64,000 bases of DNA from positions 12,104 to 76,103 of the forward strand of contig OY970292.1 of NCBI GenBank assembly GCA_963716145.1, in the 5' to 3' direction. The notes beneath the pieces are model-generated. The model was not told where the DNA came from, made no database searches, and saw only the letters and a list, made by a program, of their open reading frames with translations. The position numbers and the translations under genes are program-made. Shown in pieces: positions 14,030 to 61,220 of the stretch (within the stretch, counting starts at the first letter, position 1; the number at the start of each line of letters is the position of its first letter). The DNA is from Candidatus Levyibacteriota bacterium. GTDB lineage: Bacteria > Patescibacteriota > Microgenomatia > Levybacterales > UBA12049.

Positions 14030-15448
14030 ATGAAAGATAAGAAAAGAACTCTAGCAAAAGATACCCCAAAAGAAGTCGGTAAAGAAATTAAGATTCAGGG
14101 TTTTGTTCAGGCACGCCGTGACCACGGAAAACTAATCTTCATAGATCTTCGGGACTGTTCCGGTTTGGTTCAAGTTGTGTTTAATCCCCGGGTTTCTGAA
14201 AAAGCACATAAAGCGGCAAGTACCCTCAGTACTGAGTCGGCAGTTTCAATTACAGGTTTGGTCAAGCCCCGCCCTGAAAAATTGATTAATCCCAAGCTGG
14301 CAAGCGGAACTGTCGAGATAGAAGCAACAGATGTTGAGATTTTGGCAATAGCTGATACTCTACCATTTGATATGGGGACAGATGTACTGAATCTGGAACT
14401 CCCGACTCTTTTGGATCATAGATCTTTGACGCTGAGACACGAAAGCGTCCAAAAAATATTTATAGTGCAAGCAGCATTGATTGAAGAATTCCGAAAAGCC
14501 GCTCAGGAGTTGGAGTGCATTGAGGTAGTTGTTCCTACAATCGCGGCTGGAGCGACTGAAGGCGGATCTGAAGTTTTCAAGATTGACTATTTTGATCATA
14601 AAGCATTTCTTACTCAAAGTCCTCAACTCTATAAGCAAATTATGGTAAGTGTTTTTGAGCGTGTTTTTGTAATTACCAAAGCTTATAGAGCCGAGCCTTC
14701 AGTTACCACCCGCCACTTGACCGAAGCAACGCAAATGGATGTTGAAATGGCTTTTATAGAGAGTTTTGATGAACTGCTTGACGCATTGGAGTTTGTAGGA
14801 ACCGCAATGATCAAAAACGTTGCCGGAAAATATGAAAGTATTTTGAAGGATTTTAAAATTGATCAACCATTAGTTCCAACTAAAGTACCGCGCCTCACAC
14901 TTAAAGAAGCGCAAAAAATAATAACAGACCGGACGGGGCGTGATCTTTCAAAAGAGCTTGATCTAAATCCTGAAGATGAACGGGAGATATGTGCTTGGGC
15001 CATAGAAAAACATCAGTCTGATTTTGTCACAATCACTCATTTTCCGACAAAAAAGCGTGCTTTTTACAGCATGCCGGATCCCAAAAATCCCGAATACAGT
15101 CTGACTTATGATTTATTGTTTAGGGGGCTTGAGATGATGAGTGGGGCTCAGCGCATTAACGACTATGAACAACTGATAAAAGCAATGAAAGCAAAAGACG
15201 TAGATCCTGCGAATTTTGGGATGTACATGCAGGCATTTAAATACGGTATGCCTCCTGAAGGAGGGTTTTCATTTGGGCTGGAAAGACTTACAATGAAATT
15301 ACTGGGCTTGGAAAACGTACGGGAAGCATCACTTTTTCCAAGAGATATGGAGCGCATTGATGAAAGATTCTCAAAATCAACAGAAAAAGACCCTTCGATT
15401 GGCTCAGGGCAAGAGAAGGTTCTTCAAAAGGGCAAGAATAAAGAATAA
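14030..15448 (+). CDS. aspS: Aspartate--tRNA ligase, archaeal/eukaryal type (class IIb)
   Basis: N-terminal OB fold (IKIQGFVQARRDHGKLIFIDLRD). Motif 2 is AYRAEPSVTTRHLTEATQMDVEMAF. Motif 3 is GGFSFGLERL. 472 aa with a short Lys-rich C-terminal tail. Confidence 0.75.
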   Translation: MKDKKRTLAKDTPKEVGKEIKIQGFVQARRDHGKLIFIDLRDCSGLVQVVFNPRVSEKAHKAASTLSTESAVSITGLVKPRPEKLINPKLASGTVEIEATDVEILAIADTLPFDMGTDVLNLELPTLLDHRSLTLRHESVQKIFIVQAALIEEFRKAAQELECIEVVVPTIAAGATEGGSEVFKIDYFDHKAFLTQSPQLYKQIMVSVFERVFVITKAYRAEPSVTTRHLTEATQMDVEMAFIESFDELLDALEFVGTAMIKNVAGKYESILKDFKIDQPLVPTKVPRLTLKEAQKIITDRTGRDLSKELDLNPEDEREICAWAIEKHQSDFVTITHFPTKKRAFYSMPDPKNPEYSLTYDLLFRGLEMMSGAQRINDYEQLIKAMKAKDVDPANFGMYMQAFKYGMPPEGGFSFGLERLTMKLLGLENVREASLFPRDMERIDERFSKSTEKDPSIGSGQEKVLQKGKNKE

Positions 15449-16430
15449 AGAATTAAGAATTAAGGAGAAAAAAACCTTACCTCTTAATTCTAACGTCTTG
15501 CTTCTAAGAAAACACGAATCAAATTTAATATTTATCCTTATTCCTCTAATTCTGCTGATTATACTTTATGCAGTATATTTATTTAATTCGAGTGTTTCCC
15601 TGAGTATTCAAAAAAACAAACTTATTGCATCAACTGATACGGCTTTTACGCCTTATCCTATTGTCCTGAATTCATATCAACCGATTTTGTCTTCAAAAGC
15701 TGCAATTGTAACCGACGCTGACTCCCAGACAATTCTTTTTTCCAAGAATCCTGCTTTGCGGTTTTCAATGGCATCAACCGCCAAGATCATGACCGCATTA
15801 ACGGCACTTGATTATTATCAACCTGATTCGATTATTACTATAAAATCAGGTTTTGTGGAGGGATCAGGTCTCAATTTGCAAGTCGGGGATAGATTTTATT
15901 TTCCGGATCTTCTTTACGCCATGCTTCTTCCCTCAGCCAATGATGCAGCAGCAGCAATTGCGGACAATTATCCGGGAGGGAAAGAAGAATTTGTCGCAAA
16001 AATGAATGAAAAGGCGCAAGTCTTACATCTTACAGATACGCATTTCTCAGATCCTGTGGGAATTGATGACGATGGAAACTACTCAACAGTTGTTGATTTG
16101 GCGAGACTTTCGTCCTCCGCAATGAAAAATAAGATATTCGCACAGATTGTCGCGACCAAGCAAAAAACTATAAATAATGTTGACAGCGCTCATCCTTATA
16201 TTCTTTTTAATCTTAATAAGCTTTTGGGTATTCAGGGAGTAAATGGTATAAAAACAGGAACTACAGAAGGCGCCGGAGAGGTTCTTGTCACCTCAGCAAT
16301 TGTGAATAATCATACTTTTATAATTGTGGTGATGAATAGTCAGGATAGGTTTGGAGATACTAGTCTGCTTCTTGATTTCATTGCTAACAATATAGAGTTT
16401 GTTAATCCCCCATCGCTTGAAAATTTTTAA
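15357..16430 (+). CDS. dacA: D-alanyl-D-alanine carboxypeptidase (S11, PBP5-like serine hydrolase). The true start is probably downstream of 15357.
   Basis: SxxK (ASTAK), SxN (PSANDAA) and KTG (IKTGTT) motifs. N-terminal TM anchor. The ORF-track start overlaps aspS by 92 nt, so the start is uncertain. Confidence 0.65.
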   Translation: MMKDSQNQQKKTLRLAQGKRRFFKRARIKNKELRIKEKKTLPLNSNVLLLRKHESNLIFILIPLILLIILYAVYLFNSSVSLSIQKNKLIASTDTAFTPYPIVLNSYQPILSSKAAIVTDADSQTILFSKNPALRFSMASTAKIMTALTALDYYQPDSIITIKSGFVEGSGLNLQVGDRFYFPDLLYAMLLPSANDAAAAIADNYPGGKEEFVAKMNEKAQVLHLTDTHFSDPVGIDDDGNYSTVVDLARLSSSAMKNKIFAQIVATKQKTINNVDSAHPYILFNLNKLLGIQGVNGIKTGTTEGAGEVLVTSAIVNNHTFIIVVMNSQDRFGDTSLLLDFIANNIEFVNPPSLENF

Positions 16431-16464
16431 TTTTCAGTTCTCAATTTTCATTGAATTTTCAATG
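16418..16464. repeat. Heptamer-periodic AT-rich repeat array at a convergent gene junction
   Basis: The sequence is gaaaatttttaattttcagttctcaattttcattgaattttcaatg. It overlaps the dacA stop. Confidence 0.4.
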
Positions 16465-16510
16465 ACTAAATGTTTAAAAATTAAAACATTGTGATTTGAT
16501 TGAAAATTGT

Positions 16511-16547
16511 CCATTCGACAAGCTCAGGATCCTGAGTGTATCGAAGG
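16511..16547. repeat. Nested-hairpin repeat element (TTCGA-CTCAG-loop-CTGAG-TCGAA family), intergenic copy
   Basis: In ccaTTCGAcaagCTCAGgatcCTGAGtgtaTCGAAgg the inner and outer stems are perfect inverted repeats. It is homologous to the purU and DUF1801 leader elements. Its first 19 nt recur at 61185-61203. Confidence 0.5.
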
Positions 16548-16569
16548 AAAAATTTCAAATTGAAAATTA

Positions 16570-20452: not shown

Positions 20453-20526
20453 TACCGAGTCGTCTAATGGTAGGACAACAGATTCTGGATCTGTTTATTG
20501 GGGTTCGAGTCCCTGCTCGGTAGCCA
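20453..20526 (+). tRNA. tRNA-Gln (anticodon CTG), with encoded CCA
   Basis: Manual fold. Acceptor TACCGAG/CTCGGTA. D-stem GTCT/GGAC. Anticodon stem ACAGA/TCTGT with loop TTCTGGA. T-arm TGGGG-TTCGAGT-CCCTG. Discriminator G, then CCA. Confidence 0.8.
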
Positions 20527-34146: not shown

Positions 34147-34752
34147 ATGATTAAAGCTGGTATTTTTGATGTAGGAGGGGTTTTGCTAACAAATGAAACT
34201 GCATTTATTTATGAGGATATTATTAAAACTCTAGCCATCACTCCTCAATTGCTAAAGAATGGCTTAAATCAGGTACTCGGATCATTTATGAAGGGTGAAG
34301 TGACGGAGGAGGAGTTCTGGAGAAATTTTATTGATTACACTAAGGCGTCAGGAAAAATTCCCGTAAAATCACTCTATGGAAGAGAATACGAAAGAAGATT
34401 CAAAAAGAATGAAAATGTTCTTTCGTTAATCAATAAAATAAAAACAGCCGGATACAAACTCGCTGTACTCTCAGATACAATAACACCGCACGTTGAATTT
34501 AATAGGAAAAATGTAATTTATGATAATTTTGATGTTGAAGTTCTTTCAAACAAAGTGGGAATGATAAAACCAGATCCGAAAATTTTTATTTACACACTGG
34601 AAAAATTAAAAGTAGAACCTGGAGAAGCTTTTTTTGTCGATGACGTGGAAATAAATGTGAATGCAGCAAATTCTCTGGGAATTCATGGGATTAAATATGG
34701 GAATTATGATAAATTGGAGAAAGATTTAAATAATCTGAGAATTAAATTTTAA
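34147..34752 (+). CDS. HAD-superfamily hydrolase (subfamily IA)
   Basis: Motif I FDVGGVL, motif II SDT and a C-terminal FVDD motif IV. Confidence 0.7.
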   Translation: MIKAGIFDVGGVLLTNETAFIYEDIIKTLAITPQLLKNGLNQVLGSFMKGEVTEEEFWRNFIDYTKASGKIPVKSLYGREYERRFKKNENVLSLINKIKTAGYKLAVLSDTITPHVEFNRKNVIYDNFDVEVLSNKVGMIKPDPKIFIYTLEKLKVEPGEAFFVDDVEINVNAANSLGIHGIKYGNYDKLEKDLNNLRIKF

Positions 34753-36436
34753 TATCCTTTATCTTCAGCTGCAGTTTGGTGTTGCCGTTCCAGGTGTTGT
34801 TATCAATAGTATAAGCAATAGATATTTTATCACCCGTTTTAAGTTTGATAGCATGTTCTGAAAGTCCAAAACCGATAGCGTCAATTGTTTGGGAATCTGA
34901 TTGTTCGAGCACAAGTTTTAAATGACTTTTATCTTTTCCAAGAAGTTTGAAATCCTTAACTTCAACATCGTGACTTACAAATGTGGGCTCGGGATTTCCC
35001 ATGCCAAAAGGCGACAGCGCTTGTAGGTCATTATACAATTCTGGATTGATTGTAGAAATAGGCAGCTCGCAATCTACTTTCAATTTCCTTTCCAACATTT
35101 CAGTTGTCAAAAGCTGCGCAGCTGAATCTTCAAGTAATTTTTGAAGTTTGGCAAGATTTTCTGTGGCGACACTAAAGCCTGCTGCCATAGGATGACCGCC
35201 AACGTTTATAAATTCACTAGTATGAAGCCTTAGAAATTCGATTAGATTAAATCCACTTACTGATCTTGCTGATGCTTTACTCATTCCCCCCCCAATTGAA
35301 ATAACAATTGCCGGTTTATAATACTCTTCAACCAGTTTTCCGGCAACAAGGCCTATCACTCCCTGCTGATAGGATTCGTGAGCAACAAACAACAAACTTT
35401 GAACTTTGAACTTCGCGTCCTGAGCTTGCCGAATGGATGAACTTTGAACTGTTTGGATTGCGTGTTCGGTTGCTTCACGCAAAACCAACTGCCGTTCTTT
35501 ATTGATCAATTCCAGTTTTTCAGCTAAGGCTTTTGCTCTTTTCGGATCTGTTGTACACAAAAGTCTGAGGCTATCCATTCCGGATTCTATCCTGCCTGCT
35601 GCGTTTAGGCGCGGGGCAATAATATATCCAACCTCATAGGGCGTAAATTCTTCTTTTTCCAATCCTGCTTGTTTGAATAATTCCTGAAGTCCAAGCCTTT
35701 TTGTTTTGCAAATTTTTGACAGTCCGTGTTTGACAATAGTTCTGTTGGCATTCGTTAGCGGTACCATATCGGCGATTGTACCCAGAGCTGCCAGCTCCAG
35801 ATGACTATCGTCATCAACTTTGAACTTTGAACTTTGAACTTTGAACTCCTTCGCAAGAAGATAGGCAACCCCTGCCCCGCAGAGTTTGGTTGTGTGAACT
35901 ATAGCGTGAGCCTTGGGTAAAGTATCTGAGGGGACATGGTGGTCTGTGATGATCACATCAATCCCCTGCGCGTTTGCAAAGTCTATTGCTTCATTCGCGA
36001 CGATTCCATTATCATCAGTAATTATTAGCTTTGTATTTGGAATTTGTAATTGGATATTTGAAATTCCTTTCACAGAAAGGCCGTAGCCTTCTTCAATTCT
36101 ATGGGGAATATGAGGAAGTATTTTTGCACCTAGCGTATGGAGTGTCTCCCAAATAATTGCTGCTCCAGTTATTCCATCTACATCATAATCACCAAAAACC
36201 ACTATTTGCTCCTGGTTTTTGATTGCTTTCTGAATTCTTTTGACTGCTTTTGCAAGCTGTTTTTTGTCAATCCCGACACTTTCAACAGTTACAGTATCAA
36301 GCTTGGGATTAAGAAAACTTTCCTTCTCTTTTTTGTTTTTAATTCCGCGGTTATCAAGAAGTAAATCAATAAGCTGTTCGTTTTTGATTTTTGATTTTTG
36401 ATTTTTGATTTTATTTACGATATTCCATGTTTTCAT
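34742..36436 (-). CDS. recJ: Single-stranded-DNA-specific exonuclease RecJ
   Basis: DHH (FGDYDVDGITG ... ITDHH) and DHHA1 motifs. 564 aa. It contains in-frame heptamer tandem repeats; see findings. Confidence 0.85.
   Translation of the reverse strand: MKTWNIVNKIKNQKSKIKNEQLIDLLLDNRGIKNKKEKESFLNPKLDTVTVESVGIDKKQLAKAVKRIQKAIKNQEQIVVFGDYDVDGITGAAIIWETLHTLGAKILPHIPHRIEEGYGLSVKGISNIQLQIPNTKLIITDDNGIVANEAIDFANAQGIDVIITDHHVPSDTLPKAHAIVHTTKLCGAGVAYLLAKEFKVQSSKFKVDDDSHLELAALGTIADMVPLTNANRTIVKHGLSKICKTKRLGLQELFKQAGLEKEEFTPYEVGYIIAPRLNAAGRIESGMDSLRLLCTTDPKRAKALAEKLELINKERQLVLREATEHAIQTVQSSSIRQAQDAKFKVQSLLFVAHESYQQGVIGLVAGKLVEEYYKPAIVISIGGGMSKASARSVSGFNLIEFLRLHTSEFINVGGHPMAAGFSVATENLAKLQKLLEDSAAQLLTTEMLERKLKVDCELPISTINPELYNDLQALSPFGMGNPEPTFVSHDVEVKDFKLLGKDKSHLKLVLEQSDSQTIDAIGFGLSEHAIKLKTGDKISIAYTIDNNTWNGNTKLQLKIKDIKI
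35816..35849. repeat. (TGAACTT)4 heptanucleotide tandem repeat inside recJ
   Basis: aactt tgaactt x4 encodes EFKVQSSKFKV on the minus strand. A related (ACTTTGA)2.5 with (AACAAAC)2 lies at 35383-35413. (TTTTTGA)4 lies at 36381-36412 in the recJ N-terminus. Confidence 0.6.
36381..36412. repeat. (TTTTTGA)4 heptanucleotide tandem repeat at recJ codons 9-18
   Basis: tttttga x4 tttta encodes KIKNQKSKIKN on the minus strand. The repeat is 28 nt long, not a multiple of 3. Confidence 0.6.
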
Positions 36437-36482: not shown

Positions 36483-37856
36483 ATGATTGATAAAATACCA
36501 CCTCACATTCTGGAGATTGTTAAAAAGTTTGAAAAAGCCGAATTTGAAATTTATCTAGTCGGTGGATCAGTGCGGGATTTACTTAGTAAGCGGGTTGTCA
36601 CTGATTGGGATTTGACTACCAATGCACAGCCTTCGGAAATGCTCAAGCTTTTTCCTGATTCTGTTTATGAAAATACCTTTGGAACTGTTGGGATTAAAGT
36701 TGAAGAGCTTGCGGAAACGGAACACAAAGGAATAGTTGAGGTAACAACATATAGAACAGAGAAAGGTTACTCAGACCGCAGGCATCCGGAAAAAGTAGAA
36801 TGGGGAAAAACAGTTGAAGAGGATCTTGGAAGACGCGATTTTACGGTGAATGCAATGGCATTGAAAATTTCAAATTTCAAATTTCAAATTTCAAATGACT
36901 TGATAGATCCCTTTGATGGGCAGACTGATTTGAAGAATAAAATCATACGGGCTGTGGGGGATCCGGCTAAGAGGTTTAAGGAAGATGCTCTCCGGCTTAT
37001 GCGGGCGATCCGGTTTGCTTCGCAGCTTGGTTTTTCGATTGAAGAAAATACGTTAAAAGAAATTGCAGCTGATGCGTCTCTGCTTTCGGAAATTGCCAAA
37101 GAGCGTGTGCGGGATGAGCTGCTAAAAATTCTCGCAAGCGATTTTCCATATGAGGGAATAATACTTTTGAAGAACACAGGTTTGATGCAGCAAATTATTC
37201 CTGAACTAATTGAAGGAATTGGGATTTCGCAGTCCCGTCCGGGCAGGCATCATACAGAGGATGTATTTACTCACAATGTTTTGTCGCTCAAATTCACTCC
37301 GTCTACTGACCCGATTGTGCGCTTCGCGACTCTGATTCACGATATTGGTAAGCCGCGCGTTGAAAGTACGGACGATGCTGATTTGGTGATATTTCACAAT
37401 CATGAAATTGCTGGAGCCAGGATTGCCCGGGATTTGGCAGACCGTTTGCGCTTTTCAAAAAAAGAGCAGGAAAAGATAGTAAAACTCGTCAGATGGCACA
37501 TGTTCACAGTGGACGAACGCATTACTGATAGCGCGGTCAGGCGGTTTATCCGGAGAGTTGGCGTTGAGAATGTCAAAGACATGATGGATTTGAGAGTTGG
37601 TGATCGGCTTGGCGGTGGAACTCAGACTGCTGAGTCATGGAGGTTAAAACTTTTTAAAAATAGGCTTGAAGAGCAGCTCGCCCCGGCCCTTTTCTCGATA
37701 AATGATCTGGCAATTGATGGGAATGATATTATGAAAGAGCTGAAAATGAAGCCCGGCCCGGAGATTGGGAAGATTTTGCAAAAGTTGTTTGAAGAAGTGG
37801 ATGAGGATTTGGAGAAGAATAATAGGGAGTATTTGTTGAAGAGAATTAAGTCTTGA
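36483..37856 (+). CDS. cca: CCA-adding tRNA nucleotidyltransferase (PolyA_pol head + HD domain)
   Basis: YLVGGSVRDLL...DWDL nucleotidyltransferase motif. A C-terminal HD domain (HD..K..H..E). Start at the ATG at 36483. Confidence 0.8.
   Translation: MIDKIPPHILEIVKKFEKAEFEIYLVGGSVRDLLSKRVVTDWDLTTNAQPSEMLKLFPDSVYENTFGTVGIKVEELAETEHKGIVEVTTYRTEKGYSDRRHPEKVEWGKTVEEDLGRRDFTVNAMALKISNFKFQISNDLIDPFDGQTDLKNKIIRAVGDPAKRFKEDALRLMRAIRFASQLGFSIEENTLKEIAADASLLSEIAKERVRDELLKILASDFPYEGIILLKNTGLMQQIIPELIEGIGISQSRPGRHHTEDVFTHNVLSLKFTPSTDPIVRFATLIHDIGKPRVESTDDADLVIFHNHEIAGARIARDLADRLRFSKKEQEKIVKLVRWHMFTVDERITDSAVRRFIRRVGVENVKDMMDLRVGDRLGGGTQTAESWRLKLFKNRLEEQLAPALFSINDLAIDGNDIMKELKMKPGPEIGKILQKLFEEVDEDLEKNNREYLLKRIKS
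36865..36889. repeat. (AAATTTC)3 heptanucleotide tandem repeat inside cca
   Basis: aaatttc x3 aaatg encodes KISNFKFQISN. It has the same core as the intergenic palindromic repeats and the 60006 gene start. Confidence 0.6.
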
Positions 37857-37869
37857 GGAGCATTGCGGT

Positions 37870-38397
37870 TTATTCTTTATGGCCGGGATTACGACCAGCT
37901 GCGGCAAGGGGATGTTTATCTACGATTTTCCCCGCCTTAGTATCTACATGTTTTAATCTAGCTGCCGCTATGTGTTCACCAAAAAGTGCTGCGCCTTTGA
38001 CCAGGTGTGTTTTAACTCCTCTATACAAAGGTTTGGCTGCGACCGAAGTCGCCAGCGTTGCTGCTTCAGCATAAGCAACACTGCGATTACCATTAGACCA
38101 TTCAGTAGCTGCTTTTTCTACAGCCCAATATCCTGATCTACCGGTTGCGACTACACCTGTTGCAAGCGCAGCTGATTTGATTGCATATATTATGTTCATG
38201 TCTTTTAGCGTTTTTGTTGAGTGAGTTCTTACTCTCTTAGCTCTTCTGAGGGCCTTACTAGCTTTTCTCTCATGGTTCAGAGGTGGAGTAACAGTCATAC
38301 TGACTCCATCGTCAGTTGGCGCAATATCTACGCTCGGCCACCTTGCTTTTATTCTATTTCCTACCTGAGTTCCCAGTGTTTCACGATCTCCACTCAT
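37870..38397 (-). CDS. Hypothetical Ala-rich protein in a GC-rich (about 50%) patch; a possible foreign remnant
   Basis: Longest ORF in a compositionally deviant 550-bp segment. No domain recognised. The coding strand is uncertain. Confidence 0.2.
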   Translation of the reverse strand: MSGDRETLGTQVGNRIKARWPSVDIAPTDDGVSMTVTPPLNHERKASKALRRAKRVRTHSTKTLKDMNIIYAIKSAALATGVVATGRSGYWAVEKAATEWSNGNRSVAYAEAATLATSVAAKPLYRGVKTHLVKGAALFGEHIAAARLKHVDTKAGKIVDKHPLAAAGRNPGHKE

Positions 38398-38521
38398 ATC
38401 TGGATATTACTATATCTGGATATATAAATCAAGAGGGGTTGGGCATGAGCGGGGTTTGGTAAATAATAGTGGACTTGCTTGATGCTATCAAAAAATGAAA
38501 TAATAAAGCTAACTGAAAATT

Positions 38522-57826: not shown

Positions 57827-57881
57827 TCTATATCAGCAAAATTAACTGAACCAATGGTCAATTTAAATACCATGAGAATTG

Positions 57882-57953
57882 TGACCCATGAGAGAATCGA
57901 ACTCTCCTTAGCAGAATGAGAATCTGCTGTCCTAGCCGATAGACGAATGGGCC
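57882..57953 (-). tRNA. tRNA-Glu (anticodon CTC). CCA is not encoded.
   Basis: Manual fold on the minus strand: GGCCCAT-TC-GTCT-ATCGGCTA-GGAC-A-GCAGA-TTCTCAT-TCTGC-TAAG-GAGAG-TTCGATT-CTCTC-ATGGGTC-A. Confidence 0.75.
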
Positions 57954-59217: not shown

Positions 59218-59976
59218 GTGAGCAATGTTTTTCTCTCCGTTGTTATCCCTTGCTTTGACGAAATGGCAAATCTGCAAAAGGGTGTTCTGGATCACGTCTC
59301 GCGTTTTTTGGATGAAAAAGATTTTTCCTACGAAGTAATCATAGTTGATGACGGATCGACTGACGGAAGCATGGAATTTATCGAAAAGTATATAAAAAGA
59401 AACGTCAAAATTTCTCTTACCAAAAATCCCCATTATGGAAAAGCCGGAGCCGTAACAACCGGTATGCTTGAATCTCATGGACGCTACCGCCTTTTTACCG
59501 ACATGGATCAGGCGACCCCGATTGAGGAGCTAGATAAATTACTACCATTTCTTCAAACTGGAGAATATGATATCGCAATCGGTTCCAGAAAAGACAAAAG
59601 AAAAGGTGCGCCCGCAATCAGGTTATTTGTCTCAAGAAGCGCAATAGTTCTACGAAAGTACGCGATCGGTATTAAGGAAATCTCAGATACTCAGTGCGGC
59701 TTCAAACTTTTTACAAATGAAGCAGCAGACACACTTTTTACTAAATACAAAAAGTTTAATAATAATTTTACTGAAATAACCGGTGCAGCAGTGACATTCG
59801 GTTCTGATATAGAAATATTGTATATGGCGCAAAAAATGGGCTATAAGATAAAAGAAGTTCCGGTTAACTGGCTTTTTGTTGAGTCGCGAAGAGTGAGCCC
59901 GATTAAAGATTCGATACAAGGCGTAATAGATCTGGTCAAAATTAAAAAGAACGCAATGGCGGGAAAGTACGATTAA
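59218..59976 (+). CDS. GT2 polyprenyl-phosphate glycosyltransferase (Dpm1/ArnC/GtrB-like)
   Basis: VVIPCFDE...IIVDDGSTDGS...DMD...GSR are the GT2 DXD and catalytic motifs. 252 aa with no TM, typical of soluble CPR Dpm1-like enzymes. Confidence 0.75.
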   Translation: MSNVFLSVVIPCFDEMANLQKGVLDHVSRFLDEKDFSYEVIIVDDGSTDGSMEFIEKYIKRNVKISLTKNPHYGKAGAVTTGMLESHGRYRLFTDMDQATPIEELDKLLPFLQTGEYDIAIGSRKDKRKGAPAIRLFVSRSAIVLRKYAIGIKEISDTQCGFKLFTNEAADTLFTKYKKFNNNFTEITGAAVTFGSDIEILYMAQKMGYKIKEVPVNWLFVESRRVSPIKDSIQGVIDLVKIKKNAMAGKYD

Positions 59977-60003
59977 AATTTCAAATATCCAATATCAAAT
60001 TTC
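59976..60003. repeat. Heptamer-periodic repeat (AAATTTC/AAATATC) immediately 5' of and overlapping the 60006 start codon
   Basis: aaatttc aaatatc caatatc aaatttc aaATGac. The cca internal repeat ends in the identical tttcaaatgac. Confidence 0.45.
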
Positions 60004-60005
60004 AA

Positions 60006-61220
60006 ATGACAAAAAGTTTTAAATTGAACATTTCAATAGGGATATATTTTGTTGTTATTTTTTTCCTATTTCTATATTCTTTTACGCAAATAGATTTAAG
60101 TCTTACATTTTCAAGGATCACGGTTTTGCGAAATCTAGTAACCTCTTTTCAGCAAATAGGTTACTTCAATCGTCCGCTTTCAATGTATATTTACATAGGT
60201 CTTCTTATTTTGCTATATGGTTTTTATTTTTATTTCCTCAAACTATCGCTTGAGAAAAAGATTAGCAAAAAAACTGTTTGGAAAATATTGATAGCTTCTT
60301 CTGCGATTTTGGTCTTTTCCTATAATGCTTTTTCTTACGATTTATTCAATTATATTTTTGACGCCAAGATATTTACTCACTATCATTTAAATCCTTATGT
60401 TCATAAAGCGCTGGATTTTCCCGGAGATCCAATGCTTTCTTTTATGCGCTGGACTCATAGAGTCTATCCTTATGGTCCTATTTGGCTTCTTCTGACAGTC
60501 CCATTATCTTTTATTGGTTTTAATTTTTTTCTTCCCACCTTTTTTATGTTTAAAATTTTGATGGCAGCCAGTTTTCTTGGAAGCTTGTGTTTTATCGGGA
60601 AAATTCTGCAAAAAACAACGCCCAATAAAGAAATTTTTGGTTTAGTCTTTTTCGGATTAAATCCATTGGTAATTATCGAATCTTTGGTCAGCGGGCATCT
60701 GGATATCGTGATGGTTTTCTTTGCCCTCTGGGCAACTCATAAATTAGTAGAAAAAAAATACGCGTTACCATTTTTGTTATTAGCTCTTTCAACTGGGATT
60801 AAGTTCGGGACAATTTTTCTGCTTCCTATTTTCATCTATATTTTATTTTTGCAAAAGAAGAAAAAATCAGTTGATTGGGATTTGATTTTCAAGACTTGCA
60901 CCATAGCAATGGTTATTACTGTTTTTCTATCATCAACTTACAGCGGTAATTTTCAACCTTGGTATCTTGTTTTACCTTTAGCTTTTGCAGTGTTTATATC
61001 CAGACGATATTACATTTTCATTCCTTGCATTATTATTTCATTTTTTGCTTTGCTCATGTATCTACCTTTCTTATATCTCGGAAATTGGGATAAGCCTGTG
61101 CCGCAGATTCTGTGGAATTTACAGATTAGTTCAATGATATTATCATTTATTGCAGTTTTGGTTTATTATTTAAACCTAAGCCATCCATTCGACAAGCTCA
61201 GGACGCGAAAGCACAAATAA
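60006..61220 (+). CDS. Polytopic membrane protein, putative GT-C glycosyltransferase (DUF2029/GT87-like)
   Basis: About 11 TM. Its 3' end (codons for HPFDKLRTRKHK) is formed by a copy of the 16511 repeat element. Confidence 0.4.
   Translation: MTKSFKLNISIGIYFVVIFFLFLYSFTQIDLSLTFSRITVLRNLVTSFQQIGYFNRPLSMYIYIGLLILLYGFYFYFLKLSLEKKISKKTVWKILIASSAILVFSYNAFSYDLFNYIFDAKIFTHYHLNPYVHKALDFPGDPMLSFMRWTHRVYPYGPIWLLLTVPLSFIGFNFFLPTFFMFKILMAASFLGSLCFIGKILQKTTPNKEIFGLVFFGLNPLVIIESLVSGHLDIVMVFFALWATHKLVEKKYALPFLLLALSTGIKFGTIFLLPIFIYILFLQKKKKSVDWDLIFKTCTIAMVITVFLSSTYSGNFQPWYLVLPLAFAVFISRRYYIFIPCIIISFFALLMYLPFLYLGNWDKPVPQILWNLQISSMILSFIAVLVYYLNLSHPFDKLRTRKHK

Follow-up and report, generated by a model that had tools for sequence, protein, structure and literature searches.

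Putatively old in-frame heptanucleotide arrays in recJ and cca of a Candidatus Levyibacteriota bacterium and a 24-nt insertion nested within them

A stretch of 64,000 nt from a Candidatus Levyibacteriota bacterium (contig OY970292.1 of assembly GCA_963716145.1; GC content 0.39), in the following called the window, carries perfect tandem arrays of heptanucleotides inside the genes recJ and cca. These arrays are probably old in-frame microsatellites that undergo concerted evolution and at the same time provide a tiny insert with places to land. An earlier note, made from the letters of this DNA, had described the tracts and had proposed that they are contingency (phase-variable) loci or, alternatively, insertions of a short mobile repeat that the proteins tolerate as low-complexity loops. 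All coordinates refer to the window.

Heptanucleotide arrays in recJ and cca

Arrays were detected with Tandem Repeats Finder and with an exact scan for period 7. Three perfect period-7 tracts were found (35816–35847, 36381–36412 and 36865–36896), each of them 32 nt or 4.57 copies long. A fourth array, at site S3 of recJ, is split by an insert. The two host genes and their repeat sites are:

34742–36436, minus strand: recJ host gene, 564 aa, Pfam domains DHH, DHHA1 and RecJ_OB
36381–36412, minus strand: array at the N site of recJ, coding strand (AAAATCA)4.57, perfect over 32 nt, aa 9–19 KIKNQKSKIKN
36030–36065, minus strand: recJ site S1b, a decayed 5-unit array, coding strand ATTTCAA ATATCCA ATTACAA ATTCCAA ATACAAA; GISNIQLQIPNT
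35816–35847, minus strand: array at recJ site S2, coding strand (AGTTCAA)4.57, perfect over 32 nt, aa 197–207 EFKVQSSKFKV
35438–35450, minus strand: 5′ part of the array at recJ site S3, AGTTCAAAGTTCA; forms a 32-nt array with 35395–35413 after removal of the insert
35414–35437, minus strand: mini-insertion in the S3 array, TCCATTCGGCAAGCTCAGGACGCG, 24 nt, in frame, SIRQAQDA
35395–35413, minus strand: 3′ part of the S3 array, AAGTTCAAAGTTCAAAGTT, a perfect 19-nt tract
36483–37856, plus strand: cca host gene, 457 aa from the ATG at 36483, Pfam domains PolyA_pol, PolyA_pol_RNAbd, HD and tRNA_NucTran2_2
36865–36896, plus strand: cca array (AAATTTC)4.57, perfect over 32 nt, aa 128–138 KISNFKFQISN (numbered from the ATG at 36483), in the loop that separates NAMAL from IDPF

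The two genes are transcribed divergently from a 46-nt spacer. When S3 is counted without its insert, all four arrays are exactly 32 nt long, and the S2 and S3 arrays are the same in sequence and phase. For the decayed array at S1b, Tandem Repeats Finder returned a period of 7 with 3.3 copies (81%). The tracts reported earlier were thus verified as real DNA repeats at essentially the right coordinates, and several details had to be corrected. The mid-gene tract of recJ, with its peptide EFKVQSSKFKV, ends at 35847 and not at 35849, and the cca tract comprises 4.6 copies to 36896 instead of three copies to 36889. At 35383–35413, the 19-nt tract 35395–35413 turned out to be one half of a split 32-nt array. 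The adjoining (CAACAAA)2, which was also detected by the repeat scans (2.1 copies at 35383–35397), codes for the conserved motif LLFVAHE, and the orthologue at locus L081 has no repeat at that position; it is taken to be a probable chance repeat.

A chance origin of the period-7 tracts was excluded. The window contains six tracts of at least 18 nt and three of at least 29 nt, while 300 dinucleotide shuffles yielded means of 0.037 and 0, respectively, and a longest tract of 19 nt. Other periods (5, 6 and 8–11) gave no long tracts in the window. Per 100 kb, the window has 9.4 period-7 tracts and recJ loci from outside the candidate phyla radiation (CPR) have 0.36, and the window together with the CPR loci was 8–26 times denser in such tracts than 1.1 Mb of non-CPR recJ loci. 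Several unit families are present in the window, i.e., AAAATCA, AGTTCAA, AAATTTC and AAGAATA. Head-to-tail identical units that are over-represented against other periods and shuffles characterize the arrays as heptanucleotide long simple sequence repeats (SSRs).

Peptides with a 7-aa period were not in general excess in the proteome of the window (12 runs, versus 3–10 at any other lag between 4 and 11), and the periodicity is limited to a few genes. A replication origin or another local cause for the occurrence of four arrays within 1.5 kb was considered and was rejected, as the GC skew changes monotonically along the window. A scan with Rfam returned only two tRNAs and no known RNA family at the arrays.

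Two further tracts lie at gene borders. A tract of (AAGAATA)2.9/(AAGAATT)2.4 at 15432–15470 covers the stop codon of the open reading frame (ORF) 14030–15448 as well as the Shine-Dalgarno sequence and start of the downstream peptidase-S11-like gene. One unit fewer would join both frames into 799 codons; probably these are two separate genes. An imperfect (AAATATC)4.6 tract is located at 59976–60007, at the 5′ edge of ORF 60006–61220.

Orthologous arrays in related genomes

The best 120 of thousands of RecJ homologues were analysed. Apart from the window protein's own 100% entry they are 56–76% identical to it, and those with a name are mostly from Levybacteria, Roizmanbacteria or Patescibacteria. 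They contain 133 peptide runs with a lag of 7 residues, compared with 3–32 runs for the other lags from 3 to 11. About 50 of the 133 runs are located in two conserved helices near residues 62 and 147 (KAIKRIKKAI and ANEAVxFANE); they have no underlying DNA repeat, were discounted as protein-level motifs and were left out of the counts. The other runs gather around residues 9, 125, 198, 329 and 512, five sites that are variable. With the orthologues in neighbour-joining order (sites masked), perfect or degenerate 7-aa periodicity was observed at the five sites in almost all of them. This includes S1b, the site near residue 125, where perfectly periodic peptides occur in orthologues, e.g., ISNVKLQISNVKL.

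The DNA of the loci of eight close orthologues was compared, in which the gene order cca, recJ, greA is kept. Perfect heptamer arrays underlie the periodic peptides of these orthologues, with units that include GGCAAAT, AAAAATC, AGTTCAA, TCAGGAG, AATTCAG and AAGAACC. At the N site, (GGCAAAT)5 is present in L081, L082 and L241 and, with one substitution, in L244, while L242 has (AAACCCA)3.4. The S3 arrays include (AAAAATC)4.9 and (TCAGGAG)5.1, the S2 arrays (ATCAAAA)4.1 and (AAATCAA)4.6, and at S4 the unit AAGAACC is found on either side of a core. The orthologue alignment suggested by the earlier note might have revealed the same peptide segments without a nucleotide repeat structure; instead, the orthologues do have nucleotide repeats.

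The loop of CCA between NAMAL and IDPF comprises 14 aa in the window and 3–5 aa in the shortest orthologues. In other lineages it contains either GC-rich inserts or heptamers with a different unit (AAAAATC, CTTCAAG, AAAACTC). The peptide ISNFKFQISN is shared by CCA of the window and site S2 of the RecJ orthologue P0102. Similar arrays, often with the same insert, were also found on other contigs in the leucyl-, arginyl- (about four sites) and glutamyl-tRNA synthetases (LeuRS, ArgRS, GluRS), in an S1-domain protein and in RNase HII. By these sequence comparisons, the arrays are orthologous across a Microgenomates clade and appear to be old; they are neither recent nor private to the window.

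The unit AGTTCAA is widespread far beyond CPR bacteria. Perfect (AGTTCAA)n tracts of 25–100 nt were found in 35 viral contigs of IMG/VR (L086–L120; GC content 0.20–0.63), mostly outside of long ORFs; AGTTCAA was the sole unit scanned in this case.

Concerted evolution and array length

The orthologous arrays share their boundaries and their register. Site S2 occupies nucleotides 590–621 of the gene both in the window (AGTTCAA) and in L244 (AAATCAA), and all N-site arrays end at gene nucleotide 56, including that of L242. The in-register arrays at S3 of the orthologues consist of the units AATCAAA, AATTCAG and AGTCAGG, and in register the S3 units of the genomes compared are 1–4 of the 7 positions apart. 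The arrays are thus perfect within genomes while the in-register units differ by 1–4 nt between genomes, which is the pattern of concerted evolution.

The conservation of the N-site array exceeds the synonymous expectation. The array (GGCAAAT)5 is identical at 35 of 35 positions in L081, L082 and L241 and at 34 of 35 in L244. Neutral sites are near saturation between the orthologue genomes, because third positions of codons for the same amino acid are only 45–51% identical, with the close pair L241/L242 (68%) as the sole exception. A perfect array shared on such a saturated background indicates that single-unit changes do not persist and that homogenisation is faster than mutation. No position of the unit is silent, because a change that sweeps through the array is read at codon positions 1, 2 and 3. 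The stasis of (GGCAAAT)5 therefore needs no function at the DNA level.

A partly homogenised state was observed at S3 of L242 (ACTCAGA AGTCAGC AGCCAGC AGCCAGC), where adjacent units are most alike, which would fit local duplication and deletion. By an order-of-magnitude estimate, for the arrays to remain perfect, homogenising events would have to be fixed many times more often than an array is mutated. Such a rate would fit ordinary microsatellite slippage and would be well below that of classical contingency tracts. Slippage is the likely mechanism of homogenisation. Of the earlier proposal of slippage, turnover on an evolutionary time scale agrees with the perfect arrays and their concerted evolution, whereas switching was not observed.

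The lengths of perfect period-7 tracts were surveyed in the window, in 20 CPR recJ loci and in 120 unrelated loci. They are bimodal, with classes of 18–22 nt and 29–36 nt, and none of about 63 tracts exceeds 36 nt. Many of the shorter tracts are pieces of arrays that were split by a substitution or by an insert. P0015 and P0029 lack exactly three units (21 nt, 7 aa) at the N site, which would fit a rule that only length steps of 21 nt are viable in a gene; length differences of 3 aa exist as well, and no recent event was seen. The same arrays are 32–35 nt long in relatives, depending on whether the flanking bases extend the period. The uniform length of 32 nt in the window is therefore partly a boundary effect, and a mild oddity remains.

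A GC-rich 24-mer nested in the arrays

The S3 array of the window is interrupted by a 24-nt insert, the order on the coding strand being AGTTCAAAGTTCA-TCCATTCGGCAAGCTCAGGACGCG-AAGTTCAAAGTTCAAAGTT. In-silico removal of 35414–35437 yielded a perfect 32-nt array, AGTTCAAAGTTCAAAGTTCAAAGTTCAAAGTT, the same as that at 35816–35847. In the RecJ alignment the 24-mer is an exact insertion of eight codons (SIRQAQDA) in comparison with the orthologues. An identical 24-mer interrupts the 32-nt array at S2 of the closest orthologue (P0002, locus L081), while S2 of the window has the same array without it. Deletion of the 24-mer from S2 of L081 likewise gave a perfect 32-nt array, equal to S2 of the window. 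The 24-mer is thus a clean insertion, and because it is present only at S3 among the window arrays and at S2 in L081, it is polymorphic between orthologous sites. Insertion free of a target duplication, presence/absence polymorphism and an identical sequence on a saturated background together suggest that the 24-mer is mobile. The short mobile repeat of the earlier note hence has a counterpart, which is this insert within the arrays and not the heptamer unit itself.

The element is 22–24 nt long and GC-rich, with the sequence TCCATTCGRCAAGCTCAGGAC(A/AAG/GCG). Its 17-mer TTCGGCAAGCTCAGGAC occurs in three copies in the window when up to three mismatches are allowed, compared with 0.06 expected. 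These are located in recJ, at the C-terminus of ORF 60006–61220 and in an intergenic palindrome at 16499–16560. The copy at 61183–61206 (TCCATTCGACAAGCTCAGGACGCG) is in frame, has one mismatch to the recJ copy and lacks a clear flanking heptamer array; the ORF ends with ..PFDKLRTRKHK*. The intergenic copy sits in the middle of an imperfect palindrome with 31-nt arms. In recJ, the 24-mer does not form a strong stem.

The palindromic arrays between genes that the earlier note had mentioned are present at least at 16442–16560, which is probably the region meant. It lies between convergent ORFs and consists of two adjoining imperfect palindromes with arms of 34 nt and 31 nt, which are built from the motifs AATTTTCAAT/ATTGAAAATT. 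The second palindrome is centred on the core copy TCCATTCGACAAGCTCAGGA|TCCTGAGTGTATCGAAGG.

The 20-mer CCATTCGRCAAGCTCAGGAC was found at no fewer than 120 metagenome loci, on contigs with a GC content of 0.30–0.70, and many copies are located at the apex of an inverted repeat. Among the matches listed, 6–7 of 121 copies are inside heptamer arrays by strict criteria, compared with 0 for the control periods 5, 6, 8 and 9, and about 15 have heptamer flanks when judged by eye. In A-rich arrays the metagenome inserts directly follow TCA, and cutting out 22 or 24 nt restores a perfect array. RecJ orthologues read the element in all three frames (SIRQAQD; HSASSGRE or HSTSSGQA; PFGKLRTG). In annotated plasmids and phages only chance-level matches to the core were obtained (E about 0.5). 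An origin of the arrays as piled-up 7-bp target-site duplications of the core was also considered; it fails on the in-register divergence of units and on units that lack the TCA target.

The core also occurs as a head-to-tail tandem of itself, in L141 (8400–8500) with a period of 24 (CCATTCGACAAGCTCAGGACGGGC repeated) and in L201 with a period of about 29. Other families of small GC-rich or palindromic elements are found in frame at S1b, S2 and S3 of the RecJ orthologues P0010, P0062, P0111, P0113, P0118, P0033, P0073, P0017 and P0043, with peptides such as VIPAKAGIH..SGMT, SFRAKRSE..DPSxSLGMT, VIARSE..RFARDD and LPAGRQGQ. The loops at S1b, S2 and S3 thus appear to be general hotspots of miniature insertions. 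In a recJ gene from Levybacteria (P0095; L085, 10040–10190), a GC-rich composite insert of 150 nt lies within the N-site AGTTCAA array and adds 50 aa. It seems to be assembled from a number of core-like modules (CCCTTCGGCTCCGCTCAGGTC, TTCGACTCCGAGGCC and others), which may be nested insertions.

It is tempting to speculate that TCCATTCGRCAAGCTCAGGAC(A/AAG/GCG) is an active, ultra-small mobile element that homes, with no duplication of its target, to heptamer arrays and to the apexes of hairpins in many bacterial phyla, and that the arrays of CPR bacteria are maintained as its landing pads. This is a tentative idea, and it is rather doubtful. If it held true, essential proteins would be continually remodelled in frame by a two-layer system of arrays and nested inserts, and the element would be among the smallest mobile elements and a non-cyanobacterial counterpart of the cyanobacterial short tandemly repeated repetitive sequences (STRR) and small dispersed repeats (SDR), with a mobilisation possibly based on RNA or single-stranded DNA (ssDNA).

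Location of the encoded peptides in flexible loops

The RecJ protein of the window matched the solved structure PDB 8y30 (E=5e-83), and it was modelled with AlphaFold2 (AF2), with a mean predicted local distance difference test score (pLDDT) of 85.9 and a predicted template modelling score (pTM) of 0.83. The four 10-residue blocks with the lowest pLDDT are residues 11–20 (58), 201–210 (59), 331–340 (60) and 341–350 (65), which are the N, S2 and S3 tracts. These are predicted to be coil, and the alignment with solved RecJ structures (8y30, 5f54) has gaps exactly at S2 and S3. According to the model, the tracts would be flexible surface loops, and the peptides, which are rich in Lys, Asn, Gln and Ser, are likely near-neutral, tolerated filler. 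The lineage-specific, tolerated low-complexity loops that had been offered as the alternative to phase variation are well in accord with these results and with the variable length of the CCA loop. The idea that 32 nt encode a β-hairpin (hKh-turn-hKh), which would have accounted for the fixed length, was abandoned, as AF2 predicted low-confidence coil at all three sites.

The coding strand of the arrays is always the stop-free strand, while the complement holds TGA. The arrays of recJ and cca are located on opposite DNA strands because the coding strand must be the stop-free one. This points to selection on reading frames, and not to a replication-strand effect, as the cause of array orientation.

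Phase variation

The arrays share with phase-variable loci that the unit is tandem, is not divisible by three and is located inside ORFs, here those of recJ and cca. Since the 7-nt units are read in three frames, a change by one unit would indeed shift the frame of the host gene, as had been pointed out before. A loss of frame at the five sites was looked for in about 120 RecJ orthologues, and all of them are full length and in frame. In addition, 92 tracts of at least 17 nt, from all CPR-type DNA gathered, were screened for OFF states, i.e., for ORFs that fuse upon a change by ±1 or 2 units. None was found for the tracts of recJ, cca or aminoacyl-tRNA synthetase genes, and 65 of the 92 tracts lie within open frames of at least 150 codons as assembled. 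Ten clusters of sequences with at least 90% identity (27 sequences) did not contain any change in length or in the tract sites, a comparison of low power, as the members of most clusters are only 1–4 residues apart.

The host genes are also not those of typical phase-variable loci, which are dispensable and mostly serve surface, host-interaction or restriction-modification functions: the arrays are found in RecJ, CCA, LeuRS, ArgRS, GluRS, the S1 protein and RNase HII. The window contains two tRNA genes, tRNA-Glu(CTC) at 57881–57953 without an encoded 3′ CCA (..GGGTCA-CAA) and tRNA-Gln(CTG) at 20453–20526 with an encoded CCA. Because the tRNA-Glu lacks it, cca should be indispensable. The proposal of phase-variable loci was thus not borne out.

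The gene for Lon, which adjoins recJ, is split into four ORFs in L081 (3875–6253), and an aminotransferase gene is split as well, while recJ and its arrays are intact there. Heptamer frameshifting was considered for the split of lon and was rejected, as the breaks are about ten scattered indels of 1–2 nt off the repeats, which argues for an assembly error or a pseudogene.

Explanations for the origin and maintenance of the arrays

Old microsatellites under concerted evolution would account for the results in the following way. Arrays of about five units (29–36 nt) would have been inherited vertically across the Microgenomates clade in flexible surface loops, at five sites of RecJ and at one site of CCA. 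Their boundaries and register would be fixed and the units repeatedly homogenised, likely by replication slippage or by unequal exchange within the array, and the perfect repeat would persist while the unit sequence drifts between lineages. With a 7-nt unit, only length steps of 21 nt (three units, 7 aa) should survive in genes, and the orthologues that are 7 aa shorter would represent the contracted state. Selection would fix the orientation, the coding strand (NCAAANN) being stop-free in three frames and the complement containing TGA. The peptides would be tolerated filler and not functional modules. In addition, the arrays would be preferred landing sites of the 22–24-nt GC-rich mini-element, which would insert without target duplication and be gained and lost between orthologous sites. 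Several points weigh against this explanation. Variants of ±21 nt or ±7 nt were not found among near-identical strains, and the homogenising events themselves were unseen. Growth in frame from about two to about five units would take a 3-unit step or frameshifted intermediates, which is awkward for the essential cca. The rate of change is uneven, with GGCAAAT static in four lineages and the unit wholly changed in the window and in L242. The five sites in recJ are unaccounted for; ArgRS of L145 has about four. Lastly, the units AGTTCAA, AAAATCA and AAATTTC recur across sites and genes, and four arrays are exactly 32 nt long, which could instead reflect the copying of a cassette.

In such a case, arrays of about 32–35 nt would be block-copied or inserted at permissive sites by a dedicated mechanism, and the shared loops would result from repeated insertion and selection for tolerance. 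The identity of S2 and S3 in sequence and phase, the occurrence of ISNFKFQISN in CCA of the window and at S2 of P0102, the upper limit of 36 nt, a 49-member family of four-heptamer elements in Geobacter, some of them within genes, and the AGTTCAA arrays in 35 viral contigs of very different GC content (0.20–0.63) would all fit a cassette. However, orthologous arrays have common boundaries and a common register, with units only a few substitutions apart, degenerate 7-aa periodicity of equal total length is found clade-wide, as expected of old arrays and not of repeated insertion, and neither a flanking signature nor a carrier element was found for the arrays. A dispersed cassette is therefore considered unlikely. 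Contingency loci, in which slippage by one unit toggles recJ and perhaps cca at high frequency, are still less probable. Such a switch would modulate recombination and repair and possibly repeat stability itself: RecJ and other ssDNA exonucleases reportedly restrain tandem-repeat instability in Escherichia coli, according to work of the Lovett laboratory, and short repeats in mutL are reversible mutator switches. The unit that is not a multiple of three, the perfect arrays, one of them just 8 codons into recJ, the five sites in the unusually array-rich recJ and the slippage on evolutionary time scales that concerted evolution implies would be in line with it. Yet no OFF state of a recJ, cca or synthetase tract was found among the 92, the RecJ orthologues are in frame throughout, the ten clusters are free of length or tract variation, and the split of lon in L081 is due to scattered indels and not to unit changes. 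In addition, like arrays are present in the essential genes for LeuRS, ArgRS, GluRS, the S1 protein and CCA, and the arrays have only about 4.6 units, while classical contingency tracts are longer. A function at the level of the nucleic acid seems least probable. The arrays would then act in DNA or mRNA as binding sites or as structural signals, e.g., for proteins of the cold-shock type (one heptamer each) or as A-rich unstructured translation leaders, and the conservation of (GGCAAAT)5 above the synonymous expectation, the recurrence of 4–5 units in unrelated bacteria, the reported binding of heptamer repeats by CspB and the location of the N-site array just past the start codon would agree with this. 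Nevertheless, the units vary freely between lineages at one site, the DNA strands are opposite in recJ and cca and track only the coding strand, Rfam gave no match, the array has decayed in many lineages that kept the gene, and three-frame reading together with homogenisation already accounts for the conservation.

Comparison with known repeat systems

Classical contingency loci are exemplified by the tetranucleotide tracts of Haemophilus influenzae and the CTCTT coding repeats of the Neisseria opa genes. The arrays described here are like them in that the unit is not a multiple of three and is located in an ORF, in one case near the 5′ end, and unlike them in having about 4.6 units, in their housekeeping or essential hosts, and in that neither OFF alleles nor copy-number variation between strains were detected.

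Heptamers are, as related in two later papers, the most abundant class of long SSRs in bacteria, and polymerase slippage has been proposed for them (Mrazek et al. 2007 via PMC4692102, PMC4679880). The GGGAATC repeats of Xanthomonas have mostly four units (PMC4692102, PMC4679880), TAACTGA of Beggiatoa occurs in sets of 2–6 copies with an orientation that is restricted by stop codons (PMC4679880), and Geobacter metallireducens contains four- and five-heptamer elements also within genes, sometimes several per gene (PMC2700814). The arrays resemble these long SSRs in their 7-nt tandem units, 4–5 units per array, many unit variants per genome and the orientation set by stop codons. In contrast, the published heptamer SSRs are mostly intergenic, G-rich or regulatory candidates, none of them from CPR bacteria, whereas the arrays described here are A-rich, in frame and mostly in conserved housekeeping genes, occupy orthologous positions throughout a clade and demonstrably evolve in concert, and contain a nested mini-insertion.

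The nearest analogue overall is probably the STRR/SDR system of cyanobacteria. Elhai et al. in 2008 reportedly described STRR heptamer arrays of several unit families with nested SDR of 21–27 nt; the SDR are said to occur in heptamer arrays and in hairpins, to have no obvious coding capacity and to have been inferred to be mobile. Several heptamer families in one genome and a 22–24-nt element nested precisely in arrays would be common to both systems. The differences are that the arrays described here belong to another phylum (CPR Microgenomates), that the 20-mer core is also present on contigs with a GC content of 0.30–0.70, and that arrays and insert are in frame within essential genes. The STRR units (CCCCAGT and others) and the SDR core are presumably unrelated in sequence to the units and the core of the window.

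REP/REPIN sequences and miniature elements derived from IS200/IS605 were also compared (PMC3116915, PMC3733652). Like these, the 22–24-nt core is short, GC-rich, dispersed and often located at or in hairpins, and it inserts without target-site duplication by a short motif (after TCA in A-rich arrays). Unlike REPINs, the core is much shorter, is itself no clear palindrome and is found in frame inside genes.

A literature search found no published account of such arrays in CPR bacteria. Heptamer arrays as such are already known; new are their setting, in frame and at orthologous positions within essential genes of a CPR clade, their clear concerted evolution and the nested mini-element. How heptamers, the commonest long microsatellites of bacteria, arise and are maintained is poorly understood, and most published examples lie between genes. 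Arrays that are locked in conserved genes offer a natural experiment, as orthologous positions can be traced across a clade. The comparison separates fast homogenisation from slow drift of the unit, and it shows how an array can outdo synonymous sites in conservation. It also cautions that an out-of-frame repeat unit alone is no proof of a phase-variation switch. For the annotation of CPR genomes it follows that peptides like FKVQSSKFKV, SIRQAQD and HSTSSGQA in aminoacyl-tRNA synthetases, RecJ and CCA are repeat-derived inserts and not sequencing errors. Should the nested 24-mer prove to be mobile, the phenomenon of "smallest mobile elements" reaches past the cyanobacteria.

Neighbourhood of cca

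The region 37870–38430, just 3′ of cca, appears to differ in composition from its surroundings. It contains an ORF of 175 aa on the minus strand, which has an Ala-, Gly- and Arg-rich product and overlaps with ORFs of the opposite strand.

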